From: a virus
Lineage: Duplodnaviria > Caudoviricetes
Direction: 5' to 3' (one strand)
IMG/VR virus record: IMGVR_UViG_3300027861_000125
Location: 1-32,309 of that record
Length of the DNA stretch: 32,309 nt
The notes under the pieces are model-generated. The model had not been told where the DNA came from, did not search any database, and saw only the letters and a list, made by a program, of their open reading frames with translations. Positions within the stretch are counted from its first letter, which is position 1; every line of letters begins with the position of its first letter. This document shows, piece after piece, positions 1,926 to 32,309 of this stretch. Made by a program: the position numbers and the translations under genes.

Positions 1926-2250
1926 GATTATATGACACAACCCTCTCTGTGGTCATCGCCAAGAGGGGTTGCGTCATAATCACCGTCGGGCAGGTCCTTC
2001 AGAACGCACCTCTTGGACGGTGGGGCACCAGCCGTACCGACTCAGGTGCTTCCCGGAAGGGCGATCGTGGCCTGCGCTGGGACAACGGCGTTCCCTAAGC
2101 ATCGCTGCGCCCAGGGCGAATGCGATGTCGGGGGTGAATAGGACCTCCGGCCGGCAATCGCTAAGTGCCCGCTCTGGCAGAGGGTTACGGCAGCCAATTG
2201 CCGATCGGAAAAAGGGAGGCGCCCAGGGAGAGAGGGGCCTGGGCGCCAGG
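1926..2250 (+). ncRNA. Putative structured non-coding RNA, family unassigned
   Basis: About nine back-to-back stem-loops in the gap between convergent genes; most wobble pairs read as G-U on the + strand. Confidence 0.45.
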
Positions 2251-2570: not shown

Positions 2571-3017
2571 TCAAAGACCAAATGCCTGTCGCTCCAGAGA
2601 TATGATACGGGCCTGGGTGGCGGCGTGCAAGGCCAATGATTTTGCCGCCTGGCCCCGGGCCTCCGTTGCCTCGGCATCAAGTCGGTCTAGCTCATGCTGG
2701 AGCGCCCCCATGGATAGGGCCACAAACCCAACTAACACGGTAACGGCGAGCCCCAGCCCACCTAAAATTGCCGCAACCAACGGATAATTGGTCCGCGACT
2801 GGGCCGCGATGTCTCGGGCGAGGCGGTCATGCGAGTCCCGAAGGTCTGCGTGTAGTTGTTGGCTGGAGCGCCGCGCCTCGGTGGATGTCTCGCCCAGGGC
2901 TACGGTCAAGCCCTCCATGTGCCGCGTAAGGGTTTCGAGCCCGGCCTCAAGAGCGGACACCCGCGAGTCCACCCGGGCAGGGTCAAACCTTCTTTCGTTT
3001 TGGGGGCCCTCGCTCAT
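2571..3017 (-). CDS. Single-pass membrane coiled-coil protein (possibly holin-like)
   Basis: Heptad-rich helices flank the TM segment LVAAILGGLGLAVTVLVGFVALSM. Confidence 0.7.
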   Translation of the reverse strand: MSEGPQNERRFDPARVDSRVSALEAGLETLTRHMEGLTVALGETSTEARRSSQQLHADLRDSHDRLARDIAAQSRTNYPLVAAILGGLGLAVTVLVGFVALSMGALQHELDRLDAEATEARGQAAKSLALHAATQARIISLERQAFGL

Positions 3018-3033
3018 GGGGGGCCAACCCTAG

Positions 3034-3327
3034 TCAACCTCCTCCTGCCTCACAATGGGCCGAGGAAAAACCCGAGGGGGCGGCGGCTTCCCACGACCGC
3101 ACCCACAGCGAGTCGCCCCCAGGGAGGGCGCCCGGCACGCTGACCCGAAGTTGCCATTTGCCAAACCTCTGATCGGCCTCCAGAACCTCCATCCAGATGC
3201 GTACTCCGGGGCGCCGGGGCCAGGCGACCAATACGAGCGTGCCGACAAGGCCGTGCAGGGCTAGATATGCGTCTAGCAATGTTCCACCGGGCACCGGCGC
3301 ACCCTCACCGGCTACCTGGCCGCTCAA
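3034..3327 (-). CDS. Hypothetical protein
   Basis: Start overlaps the upstream stop by 4 nt and the ORF fills the minus-strand operon. Confidence 0.55.
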   Translation of the reverse strand: MSGQVAGEGAPVPGGTLLDAYLALHGLVGTLVLVAWPRRPGVRIWMEVLEADQRFGKWQLRVSVPGALPGGDSLWVRSWEAAAPSGFSSAHCEAGGG

Positions 3328-3602
3328 AGTTGCTCCGCCGCCCCGAAGGGAGTCTTGTCCACAACCAAGTGTTCCAGGTGCTGCACGGCGGCCTCCAACC
3401 TCTCGGCCAAAACCAAGTGTTCCAGGTGCTGCTGTTCCAGGTGCTGCACGGCGGCCTCCAACCTCTCGGCCAAGCCCAGGGCCTCGGAAAAACGGCCAGG
3501 TGTGCCGGAGAGCGCGTCAACCATCGCGGCAGGGACGGGGGCCAGGTGGCTGCGTAGACATTTAGGGCAAGTTGCGGGCACGGAAAGCTCGGGTCTATTC
3601 AT
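3324..3602 (-). CDS. Hypothetical protein with CxxC and an internal duplication
   Basis: ATG at 3602 (MNRPEL), TCPKC, LAERLEAAVQHLE present twice. Confidence 0.6.
   Translation of the reverse strand: MNRPELSVPATCPKCLRSHLAPVPAAMVDALSGTPGRFSEALGLAERLEAAVQHLEQQHLEHLVLAERLEAAVQHLEHLVVDKTPFGAAEQL
3363..3473. repeat. In-frame 48-bp tandem duplication with a nested 15-bp duplication
   Basis: Copy 1 at 3363-3410; copy 2 at 3411-3473 carries 15 extra bp. Confidence 0.9.
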
Positions 3603-3698
3603 GGCGGTCACTCTTGGTTTCGGGTTTCTGGGGTTTGGGGCGGCAGGCCACAGCCAGCCACCCGAGGCAAAAAAAGTAGCAGGCGACCTCAACGAGGA

Positions 3699-4034
3699 TC
3701 ACGCCCCACACCTGTCGAGCAGGGCTCCCTCAAGCTCGCTCTCCCAGGCGGCGGCAACATAGCGGCGCACGATGGCGGGCATGGATTCGGTGATGCGAAT
3801 CAGGGCCTCTACCATCGAAATCACCCCATCAGACCAGCCGCGGTGTCCGCCCATGTCATAGATGATGCCCGTGCCCAAAAACTCGTCGGCGTCATCTATG
3901 TCTATCTCGGTGACGCCTACTTCCCAACTCGGAGGACTCCCGCCGCAGCCGTAGCTGGGGTAGGGCTGGCCGGGGTCGTACTCGACATCGCCGTCTACCA
4001 GCAGGCCGCAGTATCGTGTTTGCACCTGGCTCAT
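3699..4034 (-). CDS. Hypothetical acidic protein
   Basis: ATG at 4034 overlaps the upstream TGA; AGGAGGT Shine-Dalgarno at 4047-4041. Confidence 0.75.
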   Translation of the reverse strand: MSQVQTRYCGLLVDGDVEYDPGQPYPSYGCGGSPPSWEVGVTEIDIDDADEFLGTGIIYDMGGHRGWSDGVISMVEALIRITESMPAIVRRYVAAAWESELEGALLDRCGA

Positions 4035-4315
4035 GCCTGTACCTCCTCGTCGGCATCGTCGTAGTATCTCGCCTGGAGCTTCGTGACGAAGCGGTCGCGG
4101 TTGTCTGTGTCTAGCCCCGCCCAGAATGTCAGCGGGCACCTCGCCCATCGCTTCTCCTTTTCAGCAGCGTACTCAGGCGAGGTGTTGTATATGTCATCGC
4201 CGTAGGCCATCCGCACGGCACTTTCCGAGGGGTGAGAGTGGCGTTGCCAGGTCAGCGCCAGGATTGCGGCCTGCCATTCTCTAGTTGAGTGGCCTGTTGT
4301 TTTCTTGATGTTCAT
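4031..4315 (-). CDS. Hypothetical protein
   Basis: ATG with AGGAGA Shine-Dalgarno; translationally coupled to the next gene. Confidence 0.75.
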   Translation of the reverse strand: MNIKKTTGHSTREWQAAILALTWQRHSHPSESAVRMAYGDDIYNTSPEYAAEKEKRWARCPLTFWAGLDTDNRDRFVTKLQARYYDDADEEVQA

Positions 4316-4403
4316 GGTTCTGTCTCCTATTGGTTGGTGTTGGTGTTGGTGCCATCGGAGTTGGTGCCATCGGAGTTGTGGCCGATCTGGCTGCCAGCTT
4401 TAC

Positions 4404-4423
4404 CGGGGGGCTTCGGCCCCCCG
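4404..4423. terminator. Strong GC hairpin (terminator or RNA-stability element)
   Basis: CGGGGGGC-TTCG-GCCCCCCG just downstream of ORF 4441-4845. No clear U-tract on either strand. Confidence 0.45.
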
Positions 4424-4440
4424 TCACTCAGCTTCGTCGG

Positions 4441-4845
4441 TTAGCGGGCGCGGCGCTGCCTGGCCCCACGCTCGTTCCAGAGCCGGATGGCTTCCTCGTC
4501 CTCGGGTATATGTTCCTGAGAGCTATACCCCGCAGGAAGCCGCTCGATAAAGCGATAAACAGACTCGTCGGTGGGATGAGCCAACAGGCTGGCCCGGTCA
4601 GCCGCGTACTCGGACATCAACGCCTCAAGGCCAGCCTGGATCGCGTAGGCCAGAGCGCGGGTCGGCACCTCGGCCACCACCCTCTCTCTGCCGTCCAGCG
4701 TCTCTACGACCGCGAAGCCGTCGAGGGAGGGGAACATCGCCGCGCAGGGCCTCGGCCAGAGGGATGGCACGGCCAGCACCCTGTACCGTGTGCTCGCCAA
4801 GGGGTTCTGGGTTTCGGTATTCATGATCTTGATTTTGTTTTTCAT
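4441..4845 (-). CDS. Hypothetical protein with mosaic segments matching late genes
   Basis: First ORF of the leftward block, start at 4845 or 4824. See findings for the matched segments. Confidence 0.6.
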   Translation of the reverse strand: MKNKIKIMNTETQNPLASTRYRVLAVPSLWPRPCAAMFPSLDGFAVVETLDGRERVVAEVPTRALAYAIQAGLEALMSEYAADRASLLAHPTDESVYRFIERLPAGYSSQEHIPEDEEAIRLWNERGARQRRAR

Positions 4846-4942
4846 AGTTGGTGTTGTGACCACAGTTGTGGTCGTAGTTGCGACCATAGGAGGATGGCAC
4901 AAAAAACAGGGGTTTGGCATAGAGTCTTGGAAATATTGGGGT

Positions 4943-5014
4943 TGCTATTGAGAACCCATTATCAGTAGTGGCCAAACGGCGGGTGAAGATGCTATTGAGA
5001 ATCCATTATCAATA
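4943..5014. promoter_or_regulatory. Two 25-bp direct repeats, each an imperfect palindrome (operator-like)
   Basis: TGCTATTGAGAACCCATTATCAGTA (4943-4967) and TGCTATTGAGAATCCATTATCAATA (4990-5014) lie between divergent gene blocks. Confidence 0.7.
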
Positions 5015-5021
5015 AAGGGCG

Positions 5022-5030
5022 TGCTAGTAT
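5022..5030 (+). promoter_or_regulatory. Extended -10 element, probably giving a leaderless terS transcript
   Basis: TG-C-TAGTAT ends 6 nt before ATG 5037; no Shine-Dalgarno. Confidence 0.4.
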
Positions 5031-5036
5031 GGTGTG

Positions 5037-5723
5037 ATGCCTGCCCCCGCCCTCCCTGCTGCCTCCCCGCCCGAGTCGGTCGCCGCCATCTACTGCACCT
5101 CGCTGGAGGCTCACGGGGATCGGTCCCGTGCGGCCGAGGCTGCTGGCCTCACGCCCGCACAGGTGAGATACAGGCTTAGTCGAGACGGTGCGTGGGCCGC
5201 CCAGGTGGCAGACGCCTGGCACAACTACCGCTCGGGGCTGGCCGCCAGGGTATCGGCCAGGGTGCTGGCCGTGGCCCTCGACGGCGTGGCCGAAACGCTG
5301 ACCTATCGAGGCCGCATTACCTACGAGGTCGCCAGGCACTCGGACGGCCAGCCCATCATGGATCCAGCCCGAGACGCTGACGGGCAGCCCATCATGGCTG
5401 GTGGGTCCAGGGCCCCGGGGCCGCAGTATGTTGAGCGCCTGGCGCTCGACGCATCTGGGCAGCCCATCCCGGTGATCGTGCGGCGTTACCCCGAGGCTAC
5501 CACCCTACGCCTAGCTGAGGCGCTGGGCGTGTTGGCACCAGCAGACAGCGGCGCCAGCGCCCCAGACCCCCACATGGTACTACTTGACGCGGCCGGTCGG
5601 CGGTGCTCTATTGCTGACCTGTTGCAGGCCAGGTACACGGCCACGGCCACCCCACCCCAATCCGCCAATGACACTAACGATAGCCCTGATCGCTCTCGGC
5701 CTCTCCGTAGCAGCCATCCATAG
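5037..5723 (+). CDS. terS: Terminase small subunit
   Basis: N-terminal HTH (GDRSRAAEAAGLTPAQVRYRL), helical hairpin and ALDGVAETLTYRG...VRRY pattern typical of TerS. Enlarged loop with DGQPI repeats. Confidence 0.7.
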   Translation: MPAPALPAASPPESVAAIYCTSLEAHGDRSRAAEAAGLTPAQVRYRLSRDGAWAAQVADAWHNYRSGLAARVSARVLAVALDGVAETLTYRGRITYEVARHSDGQPIMDPARDADGQPIMAGGSRAPGPQYVERLALDASGQPIPVIVRRYPEATTLRLAEALGVLAPADSGASAPDPHMVLLDAAGRRCSIADLLQARYTATATPPQSANDTNDSPDRSRPLRSSHP

Positions 5724-5747: not shown

Positions 5748-6608
5748 GTGCCCTCTGTCATCCGGGGGGTGCCCATCCTGGCGCTAGACGGCACCAGGAG
5801 CATTGAGTGTGAGAGCCAGTACACCCTGGTGTACCTGCTGCGGCGCCTGGACTCGGCAAACCTGGATGCGGGAGCTGTGTCGCTGGCAGCCTACGACACA
5901 GCCAACCTCAACCACGGAGGTGGCTCCGGTCCACAGCCCAACGGCACAGGATACCGATGCAGTCTCCGTGAGACTCCAGGTGCGGCTGCCACGCTGGTAG
6001 TGGCTACCGTGGCCCAAAACGGCGTGCGAGCAGAGCGCCAACTGTCTTTCACCGGCGCCCCGCTGGAGGGCGAGACGGTCACCATCACCTACCCTGACCT
6101 GTCCGACACATCTGTCGCGCCGCCCACGATCACGCGCCTCTACACCTACAGGGCCGTGCCAGCACAAGCCGGGGATCTGCTGATCGGGTCAGCGGCGGTA
6201 TCAGCCGCCACCCTGCTGCGTGCGATCAACGGCACCTCTGACTACGGAGACCCCGCCGTGTACCACGGCACAGAGCCTTGCCGCGAGTTGATCGCCGTTG
6301 CCGGCACGGCGGGCGGCGACATACACCTGGAGGCCCGCGATGGCGGCGTTTGGGGTAACAATGTTGGGATCGCGGAAACTCTCAGCAACGGGGCCTGGTC
6401 TGGCGGCGCGACCACTCTCGATGGAGGCACGGGCACCCGTGGTCTCACTCTCTCCATCGCCTACTCGCTTCTGAGCAATGACCTGGTGCTCTCCGGGGTT
6501 TCGCGTGCAGTACACTATGACATCATGGGTATGGATACTGCGGGTGCGCCCACCAAGTTGATCGCTGGGCCAGCAACCCTGTACGCATCCTCCACAGAGA
6601 CCGCGTGA
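5748..6608 (+). CDS. Putative virion structural protein
   Basis: Gly/Thr/Ala-rich beta-type sequence; GETVTI...LLRAING...LDGG module. Confidence 0.6.
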   Translation: MPSVIRGVPILALDGTRSIECESQYTLVYLLRRLDSANLDAGAVSLAAYDTANLNHGGGSGPQPNGTGYRCSLRETPGAAATLVVATVAQNGVRAERQLSFTGAPLEGETVTITYPDLSDTSVAPPTITRLYTYRAVPAQAGDLLIGSAAVSAATLLRAINGTSDYGDPAVYHGTEPCRELIAVAGTAGGDIHLEARDGGVWGNNVGIAETLSNGAWSGGATTLDGGTGTRGLTLSIAYSLLSNDLVLSGVSRAVHYDIMGMDTAGAPTKLIAGPATLYASSTETA

Positions 6609-9229: not shown

Positions 9230-9607
9230 ATGCCTGGAGTACCTGGAGTCTTTGGCCCCTCAATCGAATGTGTAGCCCTCTCTGCCGCCGTTGGCACCGT
9301 GTCTCCCGGGTTTGCGTGGTGCGAGACCGGAGAACTTTTGCAGGCGGGGGCTGCGGGCCAGATCAAGGCCATTTTTTCGATCCCTGACTTGGCGGGCGGC
9401 AATCCGACCTTGGTAATACAGACCTCCATCGACGGGCACTTTTGGTCCGATGTTAGCAACGCTACCACGATTACTAGTAGCACCGATTTTTTCTACACCA
9501 GCTTTTCTTCTTCTGCCGGTAATTGCCCGAAGCCGCTGCGTTACATTCGGCTTCGCCTGACCGCCGCAACGGCTGCAACTGGGTTGATTCATTGGGGCGT
9601 GCTATAG
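9230..9607 (+). CDS. Small jelly-roll-like virion protein (paralog 1)
   Basis: IQTSIDGHFWSDV...LRYIRLRL. Confidence 0.65.
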   Translation: MPGVPGVFGPSIECVALSAAVGTVSPGFAWCETGELLQAGAAGQIKAIFSIPDLAGGNPTLVIQTSIDGHFWSDVSNATTITSSTDFFYTSFSSSAGNCPKPLRYIRLRLTAATAATGLIHWGVL

Positions 9608-13711: not shown

Positions 13712-14782
13712 ATGGATCAAACGCCCGAAGCGGGGGAAGCAAACGCCCAAGACCCTGGGATCGCTTGGTTGCAGGAAAACGAGGCTGCCTACTCCGAAGA
13801 CCCCTCCATCCCTCTGGCCGAGGCCCTGCGCGGCGATGTTCCCCAAGAAGAGACCTCCTCTGAGCGCGTGGCTGCGGCCCTTCGTGAAGGGGTGGCGGCG
13901 GACAAGAAGGGCGAGACCCAAAAAGACACACCCTTGCCTGGTGTCAAGGGCGGGGACGGACCCTCTGAGGGAGACGATCATGCCTCCGGTTCCTCCGAGA
14001 AGAAGTCCCCCTTGTACAAAAAGGCGCTCGCCGCTCTCAATCGCGGATTGCAGTTGCCTGGTGATTTGAAGAAAACGACAATCGACGCGATGAGTGGAGA
14101 GCAAGTGCTCGAAGCTGGTTTGGCTATGGCGGAAACGCAGGCCGAACAAGATCGCGTTGGCAGCGAATTAGGGCGCATGAAGGCGCAGGACTCGAATGAA
14201 TACACGGATGCGGACTCTAGCCTTGGGGCTACAGAACCCGCCGAGGGCTCCCTCGACTTGTCTGACATTCTTGAACCCTACGACCTCGACCTCGACCCAG
14301 AGGATTTGCCCGAGGCCCTTACAGCGGTCGCCAACGCTGCTGTCAAGCAGGCTAGGGGGGAGGTGAGCAAAGAGCTTTCCGCCCTTCGAGCCGGTTTTGA
14401 GAGCTATGTTGTTGACCAGGTAGGGAGGCAGATGGAGGGACGATTCCCCCAACTGCGGGACGCGGAGAGCCGCGCCGAGGTTTACAAGAAGATGCGCGAG
14501 ATTGCTCCGACTGTGGAGTACGAGAAGGGCGACACGCTCTATCGTCGTACAGAAAAGCAGATGGATCTTGCTTGTCAGCTTGCCCTTGGCACGACCGCCG
14601 CATCTCAATTTAGCGAGAACCACCCGGGCGCACGCTCTCAGCCGCCTCGTCCCTCCCGTAGATCGCCAACACAGTCCGCTTCCTCTGGATCGCAGAGGGA
14701 TAAGGACTTCGCGTTTCTTACCACCTATGAGGATACTGGGGGCAATTTGTCGGCAGCGAAGAGGGCGTACTCGGGTAACTAG
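13712..14782 (+). CDS. Capsid scaffolding protein
   Basis: Acidic, helical, low-complexity protein immediately upstream of the capsid gene. Confidence 0.7.
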   Translation: MDQTPEAGEANAQDPGIAWLQENEAAYSEDPSIPLAEALRGDVPQEETSSERVAAALREGVAADKKGETQKDTPLPGVKGGDGPSEGDDHASGSSEKKSPLYKKALAALNRGLQLPGDLKKTTIDAMSGEQVLEAGLAMAETQAEQDRVGSELGRMKAQDSNEYTDADSSLGATEPAEGSLDLSDILEPYDLDLDPEDLPEALTAVANAAVKQARGEVSKELSALRAGFESYVVDQVGRQMEGRFPQLRDAESRAEVYKKMREIAPTVEYEKGDTLYRRTEKQMDLACQLALGTTAASQFSENHPGARSQPPRPSRRSPTQSASSGSQRDKDFAFLTTYEDTGGNLSAAKRAYSGN

Positions 14783-22304: not shown

Positions 22305-22663
22305 TGCCGATAAAGAACACCCCTGTTGGTACGGGCCGGGTATCACAGAGCCTTGGGGCGGCAGACCCACGGGCCCGGCGGAACGCGGACACGGCGCAAA
22401 ACACGCCCCTGGCGTATCACAGGACGCTCCGCGTGGACAATAGGGGCCGGGTTGGGCTGAATCCGGCCCGGCTCGTTGCGGTCGAGGCCCTCGCCCCCGG
22501 CCACTACACCGAGAACTTTGAGGAGACCTCTGGCGAGCGCCACGCCGCCTTGGTGGAATCTCACAACGCCTTGGTCGCTTCGACCCAAAGCCTCCTTGAT
22601 GCCCATGAGGCCCTTCTTGACGCCCTGGCCGTAGCGGGAATTGTCCTGCCTAGACGCCTTTGA
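22304..22663 (+). CDS. Hypothetical virion protein
   Basis: Overlaps both neighbours; C-terminal coiled coil. Confidence 0.65.
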   Translation: MPIKNTPVGTGRVSQSLGAADPRARRNADTAQNTPLAYHRTLRVDNRGRVGLNPARLVAVEALAPGHYTENFEETSGERHAALVESHNALVASTQSLLDAHEALLDALAVAGIVLPRRL

Positions 22664-23778: not shown

Positions 23779-25827
23779 ATGGCGTCAATAATTGAGCATG
23801 GAGCTGGCTCTGCTGCGCTTGGGCAGGGGTTGGCCTTTGGTTTTTCTGGCATGGCCGAGGGTCTCAAGGAGCGAGCTGCTCTTCGGTCTGCCCGGGCCAA
23901 AGAGCAAGAGAGTCGCCTAAAGACCCGTATTCTTTCCGATGCGGCAGATCTGCAAGAGAGCCAGCGGAAAGCCTCTAACGAGTACAGACTTTTGAAGCTC
24001 CGGGTCGATCCAAATAATGAGATGGGTGACGCCTGGAAGATCCCGCTTGTTGAAAACCTAAAAGAGCTTGACTCAGGAAATACCAGGATAGCGGGGGGGC
24101 AACGAGAAAAGATCGGCTTGACCGATGACCAGGCAGACCTCTTTATGAGGCTGCCCGCAGAGTTGCAAAATGAATGGTCGGACGAAATCCAGCATGATCG
24201 CCAAACCGAGTCCCTCCGAACTGACCTGCAACACCTTCGGGGGCGCCTTGCGCTGATGTCTCAGGAGGGGGGGTTTTGGGACAACGGGGGTATGTCGCAG
24301 GAGAAAGTAGAGTCCCTCCTCCGTGATATCGAAGAAGAGATCGAGGCTGTTGAGGATGGCTTCAAGGAACCTGGCCCCGTCAACGCAACCATAGACAGCC
24401 TTTCAAGCCTTATCCTAAACAGCGGGTGGCAGCAGGAGGAGACGCAGCAAACTCTTGAGGCCCTCAACGGCCAACGCGCACAGCTTTTTGCTGATGGGGG
24501 CGTTCTTGGTCCTAAAGAAGAAGAGCTTGAGTGGATTGAAAACATAATACTTCGGTATGTCGCCGGTGAGGAGGGGATGGACGCGGTGACGGCGCGGACT
24601 ATGGCTGGCATTGGCCCGGCGGGCACCAACGCGATAGCAGCGTGGACTGTCAACCGGGTCACAAAAACTCGGGGCGGAGCCCCCGGCTCCCTTGAATCCC
24701 AGGGGCTTTTACGCACCAACCGGGTGGGAGATCCCCAGACCGCTCCTATTGCCGGAGCGCCACAAGATCAGCCGCTTCCATTTGACTCCCTCTCTTTCAT
24801 CCAAGCGCCTTTTCCCTCTGGGAGGAAGATGCCTCCCCCTGGTGGAGCGCCGTCTTCAAGCACCCCGAATGCCGGTGCCTCCTCGTCGGTTGCCCGCCTA
24901 ACTTCTATTGACGAGGGGATTCGGGTTCTCGGAGAAGGAGATCGAGCCAACGATCCGCTGCCAAAAGCGTTCACAGACGCGGCGTATGCGCTGGAGGAGT
25001 TGGGCGAGAGCGATGAGCAGTACCAGGCTGGCCTTGAGGCGCTGATGTCCGAGCACGACATCACCCTTCCCCTTGGGGATGTTCTGGAACAACTGCCCCA
25101 GTATAGCGGCCGCAATCTTCAAGAGGGAAAAGGCGCTTGGATGAAAGAGAGGGAGTCAATCTGGGTTGGGAACCGTAGCGGCGTGATTGGTGGGCTATCC
25201 AGGCAGGACAAGAAACATACCGTCTGGAAGTTAGATAAAAGCCACTACGAGGGTCTGGGGTATTCAACTGAGGAGGTGCGGGACAAGATCGGGGCGGAGC
25301 CGCCCGCCTCTAAACACCTATCCAAGCTGTTGCGCTTGACAAAAGAAGTCCGCGACTTGGAGGCGATCCACTCAAAAACAAAGGCTAAGGCGGGGGCGGA
25401 GCGGGATGCGCTGCGCCAAGAACTCGAAGCGAAGGAAAAAGAGCGGATTCAGATGCTACCTCAATGGGAACGCAAAGCTGCCAAAACGGCCCTGAGGGAC
25501 CGTGTTTCAAAGGAACTGGCCACCGGGGTCTTGCCGAAAAAACTAGAGGCCCTTGGTAAGGAAATGCGAAGGGTTAAGGGGGATTTGGAATCTGTCAAGA
25601 AGTCTTACAGAGAGGACAAGGACGCCAGGGACGAGGACGCCAGGCGCCGCCCCATCAGAGACGCTGCTGCCAAGCTCCAGGCAGAGTCGGCCAAGAAGAA
25701 GTCGGCCAAGAAGAAGTCGGCCAAGAAGAAGTCGGCCAAGAAGAAGTCGGCCAAGAAGAAGTCGGCCAAGAAGAAGAATGTCGAGGACAAGAAGGGGGCC
25801 GAGGCAGGGGGCGGGCGCCCCGCCTGA
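23779..25827 (+). CDS. DNA ejection / internal virion protein (middle) with Lys-rich tail
   Basis: [12 protein letters not shown]-terminus, helical sequence, (SAKKK)x6 C-terminus, expected position. Confidence 0.7.
24782..25159. repeat. Perfect 38-bp inverted repeat inside the CDS
   Basis: TTGACTCCCTCTCTTTCATCCAAGCGCCTTTTCCCTCT at 24782-24819; exact reverse complement at 25122-25159. Confidence 0.95.
25686..25775 (+). repeat. 15-bp tandem repeat x6 encoding SAKKK
   Basis: GTCGGCCAAGAAGAA, six perfect copies. Confidence 0.95.
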
Positions 25828-25830
25828 CCC

Positions 25831-28800
25831 ATGCTGCGCGATCCTCTTGTTCGGGAAGAGTCCCCGGTTGCCCGTGCGCGGCGGCTGATGCGCGACGGTT
25901 CCCCTCCGCAGCCGCAGACGCAGCCGCAGACGCAGCCGCAGACGCAGCCGCAGCCGCAGACGCAGCCGCAGGAGCAAGAGGGCGCAATCTCTAGGGCCCG
26001 CGCCCTTATGCGGGAATCCGCAGAAGGTGAGCCTTTGGGCTTCTGGGACGCGGTGGACGAGACTTTTCAGGGGGGCAAATGGAAAGAGAAGCTCCCTTTC
26101 GTGGGCGGCGCTGTAACGGCGGAGAAGTATTCGTCTCTATGGTCGGCTGCCTCTCGCATGGAGAACGGCGAGCAGACAAAGGATGACGAGGAGCTTGTTC
26201 TGGCCTTTCTCTCTGAGGGCCAGCGCGAGGAGGGCATCGGCTACCTTGTGGGTTCCATTCTGACTGACCTCCCTGGGTTTGCGGCAGAGTTTTGGCTTTC
26301 TGGTGGCCTTTGGACCGCCGGAAAGAAGATGGGCCTTTCTGTGGCGAGCCGGGGTCTGCGCGAAGCCATCGAGTCCGCAGCCCGAAAGGGTGGGGTGCGC
26401 CTTCTCAAAAGGCAGATGCAGAAGAGGTCCGTTGGGGGCTTTACTGCGGTGGCAGCCCGTGGCATTGGCGCCGCCGCAGTCAACACGGTTGGTCAAGGGG
26501 TGGCAATGACGGCCGTTGGTGAGCTTTTTGGTGGGTCTCGGGTCACGGCTGGCGCGTGGCGTAGAGCCCTTCCTGAGATGAACCTAAGCGAAGATGATGC
26601 TGGGCGCTTGGCTATCACCTTCAACTCAACCGTTGGTGACTTCTGGGAGTCTTTCCCAGTTGCCGCTCAAGACGAGTTTATTGAGTTGTTCTCCGAGCGG
26701 TCTGGCGATGCGCTAATGACCGTGGGCGGACAGGTCGCCTCCAAGATTCCGGGGCACGCTGCCCTTACGGCCATGCAGGGCCAGGTAGCTAAATGGTGGT
26801 CTGTCAAATACCCGGGCGAGATGGGCAGGCTGCTCAAGACCGTGGCCGAGAAAGGCGGCTGGCACGGCCCGGTTGGGGAGTTTCTTGAGGAGCGCCTTGG
26901 TGGCGCCATGCGTGGCGCCGCTGGTGTAGAGCCTGGTGGAATTATCCACAACGCATTCCCTGGCACAAAGCAGATGGCTGCGGAGTTGATTGCGTTCAGC
27001 GTTCCGGGCGGTGCTTCGGCGGGCTTGCAAGCCCTGGCCTCTCCTGGCCCAGATGTTGATATCGAGAGCCGGGGCTACAGGCGCTCCACAACGCTTCCGC
27101 AGCCCGCTGGCGAAGAAGAGGTGAATGAAGCCACAGCGGAGTTTTCCAAAAACCTAGCCGATTCTGCCGCAAGTCGTGACGAGGGGGCTCCAGAGATCGA
27201 GATTGTAGACGGCCCCAAGGACACCAACATTTCTAGGCGCGGCGTTCAGGTTGTCTATGTCCAGTCACTTGACGGCAAGCCACTACCTCTTTCTGGCAAG
27301 TTCGTTCGCCCCGGGCTCGCCATTGTTGATGTGAACGCCCCCGCTGGCCAAGAGGCCATTCTGACGCATGAGCTTTTACACAACCTTGAGGAAACTAACC
27401 CGGAGGTTTTCAAGCAGCTCTATGAGGATCTTTCAGCGGAGGACCGTGAAAGCCTGGAGAGGTTCAAAGAGGATTACATAAAGGACTTGGGCGAGGCCAT
27501 GCCCGAGACTGCGCTTGACGAGGCGGGGAAGGTGTCTGAGGGCGCGGCGCGTTACGGCGAAGAGCGGGCTAAACTTATTTGGCTGTCTGTAACACCAGAA
27601 GGGCGCCAGTATCTAGCAAACATTTGGGGAAACCAGAGGAGCGCCCTAGAGAAAATCTCTGACTGGCTGAAAGCTGGTCTAGGGAACCTTGGGCTTCACC
27701 TGAGAAGCACGCAGGAGAAGCGCCTGGCAGAACTAGACCGTCGCCTTAAAACCAAGGGCACGGCCAGGGAGCACCTTCTTGGCGCCATCTTGATGGGTGA
27801 GGCGCTGGACACAATGCTTGGCGTCGATATGGGAGGGGTCCTTACAGCCCAGGAGCTTACAGCCCGGGGGCCCGCATCGTTTGGGGCCTCGGGCCCGCCC
27901 GATGGCGAAGGAGCGGCGGCGCCCGGCGTAGAAATGTCCCCTCTCTCCGTCATAGGCGGCGCCTATGACTCGGAGGGTGTATATCTGGGGGCCGAGGTAG
28001 AGCCCTACGATGGCACCGAGGAGGGGGCTATAAAGGCGGCCGCTGCCGTTATGGCGCGACTCCAAAAAACCTTCCCTGATATGGATGTGGGGGCCACTCG
28101 CATAGGGGTCACAGATAAGGATGGGGGCCCCGCCGGGGTTATTTCACCCGATGGCGAGATGAGAGCATGGGAGGCGCCTACCCCGAAAGAGTTGCCGAAA
28201 GAGGCGTCGGCCCGAGAAGCTGAAGAGCCCGAGGCCCCCGATGATGATGATGAGAAGGCCCCGCGCAAGAAGAAGAAGGCCCCGCGCAAGAAGAAGAAGG
28301 CCCCGCGCAAGAAGAAGAAGGCCGAGCTTGGCATAAGCAAGGAGCAGGCGGACGCTGAACAGGAAAGGACCGTCCGGTATAGAGCAGGGCCCACGGGGGA
28401 TAGCGCAACGCTTGAGCTTGCTAGTGGGCGGTCTCTTCCAGTTGTCTACAGGGTGGTAGACGCCGACGATGTTCTACCTACCCACGACGCCCGTAGGGGC
28501 TTCCGGCCGAACCCGGGCGCTGACATCAACGAGCGGCCCTATGACGATCCCACCGAGGGCAGAGCCTCAAGGGCCACCGTGGAGAAGATTGCAGGGAGCC
28601 CGAAGCCCCGCTTGATATTCAGCGACACCCCCAGCCCGGTTGACGGCCCCCCCATAGTTACGCCAACTGGGGTGGTTTTGGGCGGCAACGCGAGGACTAT
28701 GGCGATGCAGCTTGCCTACGGCGCGGGCGGCAAGCCAGCGGACTCCTTCCGCCGTAGTGCCCGGGCCTTTGCGAAGCGCATGGGTGCGGACTCAAAGGGA

Positions 28801-31800
28801 ATCAAAAACCCAGTAGTGGTGCGTGAGGTTCAGGCGCCCGAGGTGGGGGAGCCGGGAAGCCTCTCGCGGGAACTCAACGCTGCCCTGACCACAGCCCGTT
28901 CGCCGGTTACGGACGCGGTTTCGAGGGGCTCAAAGATCACGGCAGACTCGGCTGGCCGCATTTCTACGCTCCTTGGCGACGATACGCTCGGGGAGGTGCT
29001 TAACAACCCCAGCCGCACGAAGGCCCTACTATCTGAACTCCGCTCTGTGGGGGCATTTACCGAGGCCGATATCACCTCCGCACTTGAGGAGCGCGGTCTT
29101 TTGACCAAGGCTGGTCGAGACATGGTAGAGCAGACGCTTCTCGGGGCGGCCCTGCCAGATGTCAGGCGCGTTGCAGAGATGGCCCCGTCTGCGCGGCAGA
29201 AACTCATTCGTTCGCTCCCCTCGCTTATTGGCCTCCGCTCCGGGTGGCCCGTGTTTTCGGAGCACCTGGGAAACATGGCGGACGGAGCCAAAGCCTACCG
29301 GGGCAGCGGTCTGGCCTACGAGGACTTCCTCGGTCAGCAGACCCTCATTCAGGAGCCCTGGAAAGATGATGAGGTTGCCCTGGACCTTCTAGGGGCATTC
29401 GTTCGGGACGGCCAGAAGGCGTGGGCGGAGCGCATGAAATCACTCGCGCATCAGGTAGCAGACATCTCTGGCGGTCAAGCCGGAATGTTTGCTGGCGTGA
29501 TCGCTGACAGCCCAGAGGGGGCCGTGCGCTCTGTTACGAGCCGCTTCGCCGCCCCCAGGGGCAGCGCCAACGCTCCCGCGCCTGACGCTTCCTTTGAGGA
29601 GCGCGATGAGTTCCTTGCCAAGAAGTACAACATTCGTCAGTACGCGGAGGCAGGCCCTCGCCCGGTCCCGCTCGCGCCAGAGCCAGACTACCGTTTCGCG
29701 GCCAAACGCCCAGAGCAGGGCAATTACGGGGTGGACTCGATCTGGGGCCTTCCCCTCAATAAGGACGGGACTGTTACCGTTTACTACTTCACTACACGGA
29801 GCCTGGCGCGGGCTATTGGGCGTGCCAAGGAGATCCCCTCCCCGCCAGGGGGTCGCGTATATGTCTCGAACGACTCTTCCGCAAAGGCGGTGTACGGGCC
29901 GAACAGCCAACGCTCTGTGGTGCGGCTCATGGTGGACCCGCACGACTTGCACCTGGAGCGCGAGATTGAGGGAACGGAAAACAGCAAGCTCTTCTTCATC
30001 GCCACCAAAGAGGGGCGAGCGTTCTCCCGCAAGATGGAGACCGGCAACCCCTATGCTCGCCAGGTGGCAACCCATGGTCTGAGGTATTTCAGAAGTGTCT
30101 CTGTGGACCCAAAGTTCACATGGAAGCGGCTACGCGAGAGCTTCGCGCAGGCGCTGGACGAATATCTCGCCCTGTCCCCCAAGGAGCAGCGGGCGCGGCT
30201 TTCAGAGGTCAATAAGCACCTCAAGCAAGAGCACAATGTCACAACCCTACTCACGGGCAACCGCAAGCTCCTCAAGAGCAAGGCTGGGGCCATTGGTCTC
30301 AAGCTCCCCAAGTGGGCCAAGGGGATCAAATCTGCTGGCGTCGGCCTTGCGGCTGCTCAACAGCTAGGGGATGACATCAACCTTTGCGAACTCAGCGCCA
30401 ACTGCATGGCAGTCTGTCTCGGGCACACGGCTGGCGATAACTGGACCCACGGAGGGAGGGGGTCGGATCGGCGCGGAGCGAGAATGTCCCAGTACCAGAA
30501 GTCCGAGGCCATGGTCCTCAGTCCCGAGGCATTCATCATTCGGCTGCACCATGAGATTTCTAAGATGGAGGCGGCGGCCAAGGGAGAGAAGGTGATAAGC
30601 GCGGTTCGTATCAATGTGACCTCGGACATCCCCCCCAAGGTCTTCCGGTCTCTGATGGAGGCGCACCCCGGCACCACCTTCTACGACTACACGAAACTTC
30701 GCGGTATGCCCATAGCGCCGAACCATCACCTGACCTACTCGTCGGACGGGCTCGCGCAGACTCTGCCCGGCGGTGAGCGCGTCGGGCACGATCACCCGAA
30801 CAACTGGCGGTTTGTGCGGAGTATGCTGGATCGGGGATACAATGTTGCCATGGGCTTCTCCGCCAAGGGAGCGGGAGAGGGCGATAGATATGACCGCACC
30901 CAACTCCCGGCGCGACTAAAGGACGAGGAGACGGGAGAGATTTATCGGGTCCATGACGGCGACACATACGACACTCGGTTTTTGGACCCGAAGGCGCGTC
31001 AGAGGAAAGGGCGCAAGAAGGGCATGATCATTGGGCTCCGCAACAAGGATATGTCCACCAAGGCGGCGAGTGCCGCCAAACAGTCGGGGGGCTTCTTCGT
31101 GGACTACGACAGGAGTCGTGATGGAGCCACCGTGACTGTGGAGACGCAGCCGCTTCCGGGGGAGTTCAAGGCTCGCCCCCGCTTCGCTGCTCCTGCTCCC
31201 CCCGTAGGTTCACCAGAGTTCCAAGCATGGTTCGGGGACGGGGTGGTGGATGCGGAGGGGAAGCCGCTGGTGGTTTATCATGGGACGGGGCGGACCTTCA
31301 CCGAGTTTGCCCGAAGGGCCCTTGTCAGGGTTGGTTTTGGTCACGGCTTCCACTTCTCCGCCGACCCCGCCGTTGCGAACATTTACGCTCAACAATGGGA
31401 CCCGGATGCCAAGCGGGTGCTTGCGCCCTACGGCTACCGCTCCAACAACCCCGGTGGTGCGTGGTTGGAGCATGAGCAGGCGAAAGCCCGCGCAGGGAAG
31501 AAACGCGGGACGGTGACTGCCCAAACGGTCGACGCGCCCATCGCGGTTGACGATCTCCTGCGCCTTCCTGGGCAAGCTGACGAGCATAACCACATTCTGG
31601 ACGGCGACGAGCGCGTGCTCGAACTGGCCGAGGAGATGAGGGCTGTCGGGTACAAGGGTGACGAGCCCCTGCTCGTATGGGTGCCTCTCGACGGTCGGGC
31701 CACTATTGCCGAGGGAAACCATCGCGTGCGAGCCGCGAAGCTCGCCGGGATCGACACCGTGCCCGTGCATTTCCGCTGGTTCGCTGGATCGGAAAAGGCC

Positions 31801-32309
31801 ACCGGGGAGTGGAGCGCCAAGTCCGTCGCGCAGAAAGTGGGCGGCCAGGTGGGTGCCGCTCCGCGAGGCCTCGCCGTTTATCTGTCGATTCAGAACCCGG
31901 CATCCCTCCAAGAGTACCTAGACGCGAAGCGGAACTTTGAGGGCACCGGGTTGGTGGTAGAAATCCAAACCCGAAGGCTCCTAGAAGAACGCGGCTTTGA
32001 CGGGATCAAGTATCCCGGTGACGGAATCCTCACGGAAGGCGGGTGGAGCTATGTTGCCTTCTCCCCCGACCAGATCAAATCCGCCACGGGCAACACCGGA
32101 GCCTACGGCCAGCGTCCCCCTACTGCTGAAGAGGCGTCCGGGGTAGGCATGACCGAAGCCGAAGCCCTTGAGGCACAGCGGGGGGGCGACATACGCTTCG
32201 CCATTCCCCGCGTTGACCAGTTGGGTTTCTTCTCGCAAGCCGAGAAGGCCGCTCTCGAATCGCCTCAAAAATCCTACCGCAAGAACCAGGTGCGCCCGCG
32301 CTTGAAGAA
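25831..32309 (+). CDS. Giant polyvalent internal virion protein (3' truncated, >2150 aa)
   Basis: Hand translation from ATG 25831 is open to the window end, which is why the track omits it. Motifs: HELLH at 27367; [13 protein letters not shown]...GPPIV...GGNAR; [14 protein letters not shown]...FYDYTK; [20 protein letters not shown]...QIKSATGN. Confidence 0.92.
25909..25971 (+). repeat. CAGCCG/CAGACG microrepeat encoding (QPQT)n
   Basis: Directly visible. Confidence 0.9.
28255..28323 (+). repeat. 21-bp tandem repeat x3 encoding APRKKKK
   Basis: GCCCCGCGCAAGAAGAAGAAG x3. Confidence 0.95.

Follow-up and report, generated by a model that had tools for sequence, protein, structure and literature searches.

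The window, i.e., the whole stretch of DNA analysed here, is a linear tailed-phage record of 32.3 kb (32,309 nucleotides, about 78% complete) whose sequence is present in marine metagenome runs. Rightward from 5034 lie terS (phrog_4044, E 1.3e-4), terL, a capsid gene and the gene of a giant polyvalent protein, and leftward from about 4900 small genes, whose start motifs recur from one to the next, form an operon. The labels "scaffold", "portal" and "ejection gene" reflect gene order only, and the putative scaffold and ejection proteins have no match in PHROGs or Pfam; late genes would account for about four-fifths of the genome. Between the divergent early and late units lie two direct repeats of 21 nt that resemble operators (4944-4964 and 4991-5011; span 4944..5011). 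They are 20/21 identical and kept both in the window and in a sister strain, hereafter strain B (contigs L002, L004, L006, L007 and L010). These repeats may serve as operators, and no repressor gene for them was identified. A sigma70-like promoter candidate for the leftward early operon (4958..4987, minus strand, 9/12 matches) is the only promoter-like site found between 3000 and 5200, none being found on the plus strand of this interval; as shuffled sequences give 0.5 site on average, this prediction is weak. With respect to the host, no cultured phage match was obtained, and an assignment from a 30%-identical capsid on a 32-kb contig (L013) of a Thermoplasmatota-labelled (archaeal) MAG was rejected, this contig being likely a binned virus contig. 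The giant polyvalent protein (window 25831-32307) contains ddrB-ParB, GP88 and ADP-ribosyltransferase domains; strain B departs from the window after 31269, in this gene, and has LPD38 at its likely far end. Tandem repeats are present in the window at 13-72, 3353-3478, 25678-25779, 25895-25976 and 28252-28335; strains differ in copy number at 3353-3478 and 25895-25976, and assemblies do so at 25678-25779.

The recipient ORF (4441..4845, minus strand; 134 aa) joins a 114-aa cassette gene, from 4824, to 7 codons belonging to the first early gene. Its homologues are found only in near-identical strains, which agrees with the de novo gene building proposed in the first-pass annotation; against this proposal, the insert-free form of the ORF is predicted to adopt a beta-beta-beta-alpha fold (mean pLDDT 62.4, i.e., modest confidence), and according to this model it may be an older small gene being peppered with pieces. 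No fold match was obtained at E<=0.001 for the ORF-cluster protein P0001, and neither fold searches nor the Atlas provided a family. Upstream of the first early ATG, strain B has 15 bases that include an SD-like motif (L004 9800-9814; window 4846-4848). They are missing from the window strain, whose 134-aa ORF may for this reason be poorly translated.

A Twister-P5 self-cleaving ribozyme motif (4370..4433, minus strand; Rfam RF02684) starts 7 nt past the stop codon of this ORF, with a score of 46 bits against a gathering threshold of 37.6 (E 1.7e-6) and no broken pairs flagged. The module containing it (4334-4438) is also found in runs X2, X5 and X6 behind different upstream sequence, and Twister-P5 is absent from strain B even at E<=5. 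A twister pattern search retrieved no other record, an Rfam scan of seven retrieved stretches returned nothing, and Twister-P5 was detected in 0/23 records, a count to be read with control genomes that were equally silent. Twisters are known near phage genes, and a role in the processing of polycistronic mRNA has been suggested for them (PMC6765202). The motif described here resembles them, being of the P5 type and intergenic in a polycistronic region, with the difference that it follows a patchwork ORF (PMC6765202). In the cassette region, this predicted ribozyme likely serves to process the mRNA, and its position on the minus strand points to this strand as the transcribed one, which counts against an antisense RNA made from the plus strand. 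Downstream of the twister, the minus strand contains a 15-nt tandem duplication and a CA-rich leader, and one X2 variant is without 16 nt there. In X6, a loose end of 30 nt that precedes the twister has some likeness to the giant gene (20/30) and was left uncounted, controls reaching 19-20/30. RNA folding of the whole locus was unremarkable (z -1.14).

Three reverse-complement matches had been reported in the first-pass annotation; self-BLAST and a repeat search confirm them, far above shuffled sequences. The first piece, E1 (4729..4767, minus strand), is as claimed a 39/39 reverse complement of 13806..13844 (plus strand) in the putative scaffold gene, read in a different frame. The two flanks of E1 (4768..4783 and 4717..4728, minus strand) are the halves of a second piece, E2, which join to match 5258..5285 (plus strand) of terS (phrog_4044). 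Its first half, which keeps the donor's frame, is 16/16 to 5258-5273, and both halves together give the 27/28 initially counted against the window terS and 28/28 against the terS of strain B, the single mismatch being a strain SNP at 5274. The match of E3 (4605..4639, minus strand; 35 nt) to 25023..25057 (plus strand) of the putative ejection gene also holds at 33/35, with the donor's frame kept. What had been missed is a 38-nt piece whose donor lies outside the window (E4, 4533..4570), an insert in a late gene (24782-24817) and the twister. When 4441-4845 was shuffled 1000 times with its dinucleotides preserved, exact matches to the remainder of the genome reached 17 nt at most, and stretches of at least 16 nt, of which three are observed, occurred with a mean of 0.011 and a maximum of 1; such a shuffled control had been named beforehand as a possible refutation, and the shuffles do not reach the observed matches. 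The observation is hence confirmed as real and is larger than first reported. Moreover, it is correct that no repeats separate the pieces: none was found among the families shown by the repeat search, and the insert-free site is contiguous. Searches of phage and plasmid collections with the locus gave chance matches only, and, when more diverged pieces were sought by comparing six-frame peptides, low-complexity noise was all that appeared besides those already known.

Alignment of homologues, which had been recommended to tell which copy is the insert, designates the locus copy of E1. Indeed, X5 and X6 contigs join 4728 to 4768, omitting exactly 39 nt (depth 2.8 and 2.2, in two runs that may be one campaign), and the 13 residues of E1 are missing in 3/4 ORF-cluster proteins (P0001, P0003 and P0004) and present in the fourth. 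In addition, strain B has the donor in unaltered form. E1 is therefore a recent insert in the older terS-derived piece E2. The insert-free strains thus demonstrate the in-frame 13-codon insert nested in a terS-like piece that had been deduced from the letters, and support serial templated capture, including the order of nesting. The insertion is blunt and polymorphic between strains, with no target duplication and no microhomology, neither end of E1 sharing a base with the donor flanks. In run X1, possibly the origin of the window DNA, contigs break at the 39-mer (depth 22.5 for 3444-4758, 48.2 for the isolated 39-mer and 35.9 from 4738 onward), exactly as a genuine two-copy 39-mer predicts. 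Given that E2 is 28/28 to the terS of strain B and that X2 locus variants have the donor base at 4620, within E3, the older pieces were copied from earlier alleles and have drifted since. Regarding E4, it is matched by differently flanked contigs in 4/4 runs compared, with one difference where listed (X2, X3 and X4), and an exact search of IMG/VR did not find its donor. In X2, the 4698-nt contig carrying this donor has a depth of 12.7, close to that of longer phage contigs (13.5-14.7), and the donor is therefore likely to belong to the missing, unsequenced part of the same phage genome.

The self-BLASTN search that had been recommended also uncovered a further inverted in-frame copy. This piece, E5 (24782..24817, plus strand), is a 36-nt copy of 25124-25159 (donor feature 25122..25159, plus strand); it lies within the putative ejection gene, and strain B has no counterpart. 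It sits in a Pro/Gly-rich stretch about 300 nt from its donor, with 2-3 nt of microhomology at one end, and is also found in P0157 from a second assembly, possibly of the same DNA. Right of 4850, it is the sole strain indel of more than 4 nt outside changes in tandem or short local repeats. As E5 lies in a late gene, capture is not confined to the locus. E1 and E5 are two precise strain polymorphisms; both are known only from X1 or from assemblies possibly sharing its DNA, the comparison of run contigs covering E1, and the events with a known empty site number only two (n=2).

Strain B is 98-99% identical to the window from 4824 rightward and unrelated between about 4280 and 4824, the alignment of the window to L004 breaking at 4052/4278-4824. 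At this place, strain B has two proximal ORFs containing an independent set of pieces (25, 31, 21 and 20 nt exact, and one of 14 nt) in both orientations. L004 9692-9711 (20 nt) and 9477-9490 (14 nt) derive from terS (window 5305..5324, plus strand); L004 9441-9462 and 9220-9244, both antisense in the early transcript, derive from 6154..6175 and 22349..22373 (plus strand), respectively; and L004 9257-9287 derives from the giant polyvalent gene, matching strain B's own allele at 31/31 vs 22/25 for the window equivalent (32102..32126, plus strand). In each strain, the pieces thus follow alleles that really exist. Four segments of at least 16 nt are observed for a shuffle mean of 0.013. Three of the pieces are almost back to back, and 5/11 matches of at least 12 nt come from the adjacent 1.6 kb (3.1 per kb vs 0.2-0.4). 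These pieces are identical in an IMG/VR record and in a GenBank-type record, which may share a sample. Considering the two strains together, the proximal 405 + 713 nt (window and strain B) contain 3 + 4 segments of at least 16 nt, and the distal 1141 + 1785 nt of the same two early operons contain none. The two patchwork ORFs tested have near-identical copies as sole homologues, the neighbouring cassette gene having 488, and no confident fold is predicted for the strain B ORF (pLDDT 39.7). The twister and the insertions, between which a link would be hypothetical, are co-located in the window lineage, and strain B has pieces without a twister.

Among the mapped pieces of both strains and E5, 6/9 are sense and 3/9 antisense to the transcript in which they sit, the donor's frame being kept in 4/6 of the sense pieces, for which we estimate a chance probability of about 0.1. 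Distances to the donors range from 0.3 kb to more than 20 kb. In the window lineage, the four pieces that are not split measure 35, 36, 38 and 39 nt; those of strain B measure 14-31 nt. The early description of all pieces as sense and spacer-sized is therefore valid for the three window pieces and the 35-39-nt class, and fails for the three antisense pieces and the shorter ones of strain B. Similarly, the mapped donors of the window are late genes, as had been noticed, and a bias toward them is not established, such genes making up some four-fifths of the genome. In 20 distant relatives (major capsid about 30-39% identical), several of them covered in part, repeated start motifs are present, a single long-range match of 19-24 nt is seen in 5/20, and no locus-like cluster was found; from these sequences, the trait looks confined to a narrow clade as far as sampled. 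A distant relative, G006 (L098), has at 1585-2014 and 2373-2985 two local inverted pairs of 27-28 nt with common first bases, which are probably regulatory repeats.

The search for enzymes that could build such a locus, advised at the outset for reverse transcriptase, recombinase and Cas1, was fruitful for the recombinase only. RT (PF00078) was not found in the window record (G000, about 78% complete), nor Cas1 in G000 or G001, both incomplete. In strain B, RecT (L004 1473-2447, PF03837, E 7e-41) is followed by a DUF3799/exonuclease VIII (RecE-like) gene (L004 2450-3508), both located just left of where the window starts, and the RecT cluster is also present on a 37,261-nt contig sharing window proteins. 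No PAM consensus was discerned by eye in the flanks of 7 donors, a comparison limited by few events and fuzzy ends. A common internal donor motif was not above simulation (57% and 18% of random sets equal it), leaving a bipartite central motif, as in a type IIB restriction scenario, unsupported. Rfam scans revealed no CRISPR repeat, and 0/2 known empty sites (E1 and E5) show a target-site duplication. Finally, 2/7 donor sites carry a strain SNP, which is no excess over the genome rate of 1.05%.

In eukaryotes, templated insertion or fragment capture at double-strand breaks introduces short copies of near or distant sequences, in either orientation, with 0-3 nt of microhomology and no duplication. 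By analogy, this process would be the closest in its working to the present case, in which the recipient is a phage genome and the pieces concentrate at a single locus in both lineages. In contrast to DGRs, retrons and RT-Cas1 systems, characterised by pieces of one polarity or by a template/variable repeat pair with adenine-specific changes, the pieces have no single polarity (6 sense, 3 antisense) and most are exact copies. Virus-borne mini-CRISPR arrays keep spacer-size virus-derived pieces in a viral genome without cas genes (PMC6858448). The present pieces are likewise spacer-sized (35, 36, 38 and 39 nt in the window; 14-31 nt in strain B) and strain-variable; they differ from those arrays in having no repeats or duplication, and in being self-derived, inside ORFs, nested and, in one case, in a late gene (PMC6858448). 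T4 minihomology recombination and repair after Cas cleavage offers another example of non-classical joining of phage breaks; it yields deletions between 3-13 nt repeats, whereas templated insertions of 36-39 nt with 0-3 nt of microhomology are found here (PMC8262927). The locus also recalls the PeSLs of T4-type phages, or hyperplastic early regions: its genes are small and non-conserved, have repeated start motifs and are swapped between close strains. PeSL cassette shuffling moves whole genes between repeats, which leaves the sub-gene pieces of structural genes unexplained (PMC2839356). Relaxed Rad52-like/RecT recombination has its genes in this phage lineage, which encodes RecT and a RecE-like exonuclease; it needs flanking homology and swaps long mosaics, whereas E1 has no such homology and E5 has it on one side only (PMC3945230).

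The explanation that we favour, and to which we give an even chance, is that short fragments of the phage's own DNA are captured into breaks, with a concentration in the dispensable, promoter-proximal early cassettes. The locus would be a hypervariable promoter-proximal early region gaining short copies of its own genome one after another, the inserts having likely entered breaks as free duplex fragments that were joined, in the course of infection, with no homology. In size, the 35-39-nt class would fit CRISPR prespacer-type fragments; the fragments might be by-products of host nucleases chopping phage DNA, and sealing might be ensured by host end-joining or ligase activity. Pieces would pile up at the locus since the phage can do without its cassettes, which probably suffer frequent breaks, perhaps next to a site near terS where packaging begins. 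At other places, an insertion would persist only if it kept the frame and fell in a tolerant linker, as exemplified by E5. The product would be a new orphan coding sequence and not a programmed guide array. Capture into breaks is the best fit because the junctions are blunt or almost so (0-3 nt of microhomology), the inserts are templated in either orientation with no duplication, the donors lie as far as tens of kb off and four pieces measure 35-39 nt. Against it, no joining enzyme was identified in the records searched, neither a consistent PAM, judged by eye in 7 donors, nor a single size ruler (strain B, 14-31 nt) is seen, and the proximal clustering is stronger than dispensability alone predicts, the distal early genes being free of pieces.

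The local enrichment and back-to-back pieces of strain B fit equally well serial template switching or short-patch recombination, in which a broken 3' end, helped by RecT and the RecE-like exonuclease, would briefly copy another site and return; we regard this as a possible but doubtful account of the whole. Both genes are present in the strain B contig, the donor of E5, an inverted copy with microhomology, is only about 300 nt distant, and Rad52-like recombinases act on short, diverged homology (PMC3945230). Older pieces could then be in-frame patch replacements rather than insertions, and the frame conservation in 4/6 sense pieces points the same way, with the reserve that it is not beyond chance. 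Template switching does not explain E1, whose donor is 9 kb away and whose ends are devoid of microhomology, and in T4 minihomology repair the available text mentions insertions of only 1-5 nt besides deletions between 3-13 nt repeats (PMC8262927). It does account for E5 and for the chained pieces that strain B drew from nearby; the two routes may coexist. Sizes of 35-39 nt, resembling those of spacers, and three window locus pieces all sense to late mRNA could suggest off-target full-site integration by a host Cas1-Cas2 integrase or RT capture of late mRNA, which we consider very unlikely. Indeed, neither empty site has the duplication expected from canonical integration, no repeat family or Rfam CRISPR repeat accompanies the pieces, and no PAM consensus was discerned by eye in 7 donors; moreover, no Cas1 (2/2 records) or RT (1/1) was found, these records being incomplete, and the capture from mRNA contemplated in the first-pass annotation is not supported, 3/9 pieces being antisense to the transcript hosting them.

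If selection rather than repair shaped the locus, it could be a repeat-less memory or decoy, new pieces being added near the promoter, in which the earliest transcript, its 3' end trimmed by the twister, sequesters the guide-RNA complexes of the host, or in which decoy targets are provided by the DNA copies themselves. This is an unlikely reading, to which the proximal clustering in two lineages, the most promoter-proximal whole piece being the newest, the spacer-like sizes, the persistence of the twister module under changing upstream sequence (X2, X5 and X6) and the SD-like stretch of strain B missing from the window strain lend some weight. It is weakened by strain B having pieces with no twister, by E5 lying in a late gene far from the locus, by the mixed orientation and by donors without an excess of strain SNPs; twisters near phage genes have, besides, already been given suggested mRNA-processing roles (PMC6765202). 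In its most ambitious form, namely a promoter-proximal acquisition locus without repeats for host-made prespacer-size self fragments, carried on a ribozyme-trimmed RNA that is the first to be made in infection and acting as an adaptive decoy or counter-immune memory that breeds new genes, we likewise deem it improbable. RNA-level action had also been proposed as a plus-strand RNA directed against packaging, head and ejection mRNAs. Transcription of the plus strand at the window locus would yield an RNA complementary to three late mRNAs, but it is the minus strand that carries the ribozyme and the sole promoter-like site found in 3000-5200, and a minus-strand transcript is identical to the late mRNAs at the three pieces, making pairing impossible. 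Furthermore, the targets wholly differ between strains about 98.5% identical in late genes, strain B pieces are of both polarities, and E1 splits E2, halving its pairing, so that this function is extremely improbable. An assembly or amplification chimera, which the restriction of E1 and E5 to X1 or possibly same-DNA assemblies might evoke, has just as little credibility: E2-E4 are in the same context in X5 and partly in X6 and X2, X1 contains no insert-free joint at depth 22-36, both inserts keep frame, and the strain B pieces recur in two records, possibly of one sample.

The locus is a real, strain-polymorphic hotspot of short self-derived insertions in a phage early region, in two lineages, adjoined by a twister in one of them. 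Capture into breaks is a repair outcome of a known kind that we did not find described for phages; no report of clustered self-derived short inserts in a phage was found in the literature, subscription papers being mostly outside the coverage. Capture by homology-free joining of short fragments, the likely mechanism, would be an undescribed way for phage genes to gain sequence. Phage early regions are rich in small orphan genes and, in these two sister strains, pieces of structural genes enter early genes in steps that can be ordered from empty sites, nesting and later point changes. Were the fragments by-products of host immunity sealed into breaks, phage genomes would record host attack, and break repair would supply new coding sequence as well as, in genes that are essential, in-frame insertions allowing escape. 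In practice, clustered self-matches of 20-40 nt need not be assembly errors.

Besides this locus, a second strain-variable cassette is located at window 1931-2203 and L004 5793-6186, strain B having there a 101-aa ORF and the window a shorter, partly rearranged stretch. Among the early genes of strain B, L004 8693-9049 (minus strand) encodes an acidic protein of 118 aa from a wide unnamed family (488 representatives at E<=0.001), which may be reminiscent of Ocr-type DNA mimics.
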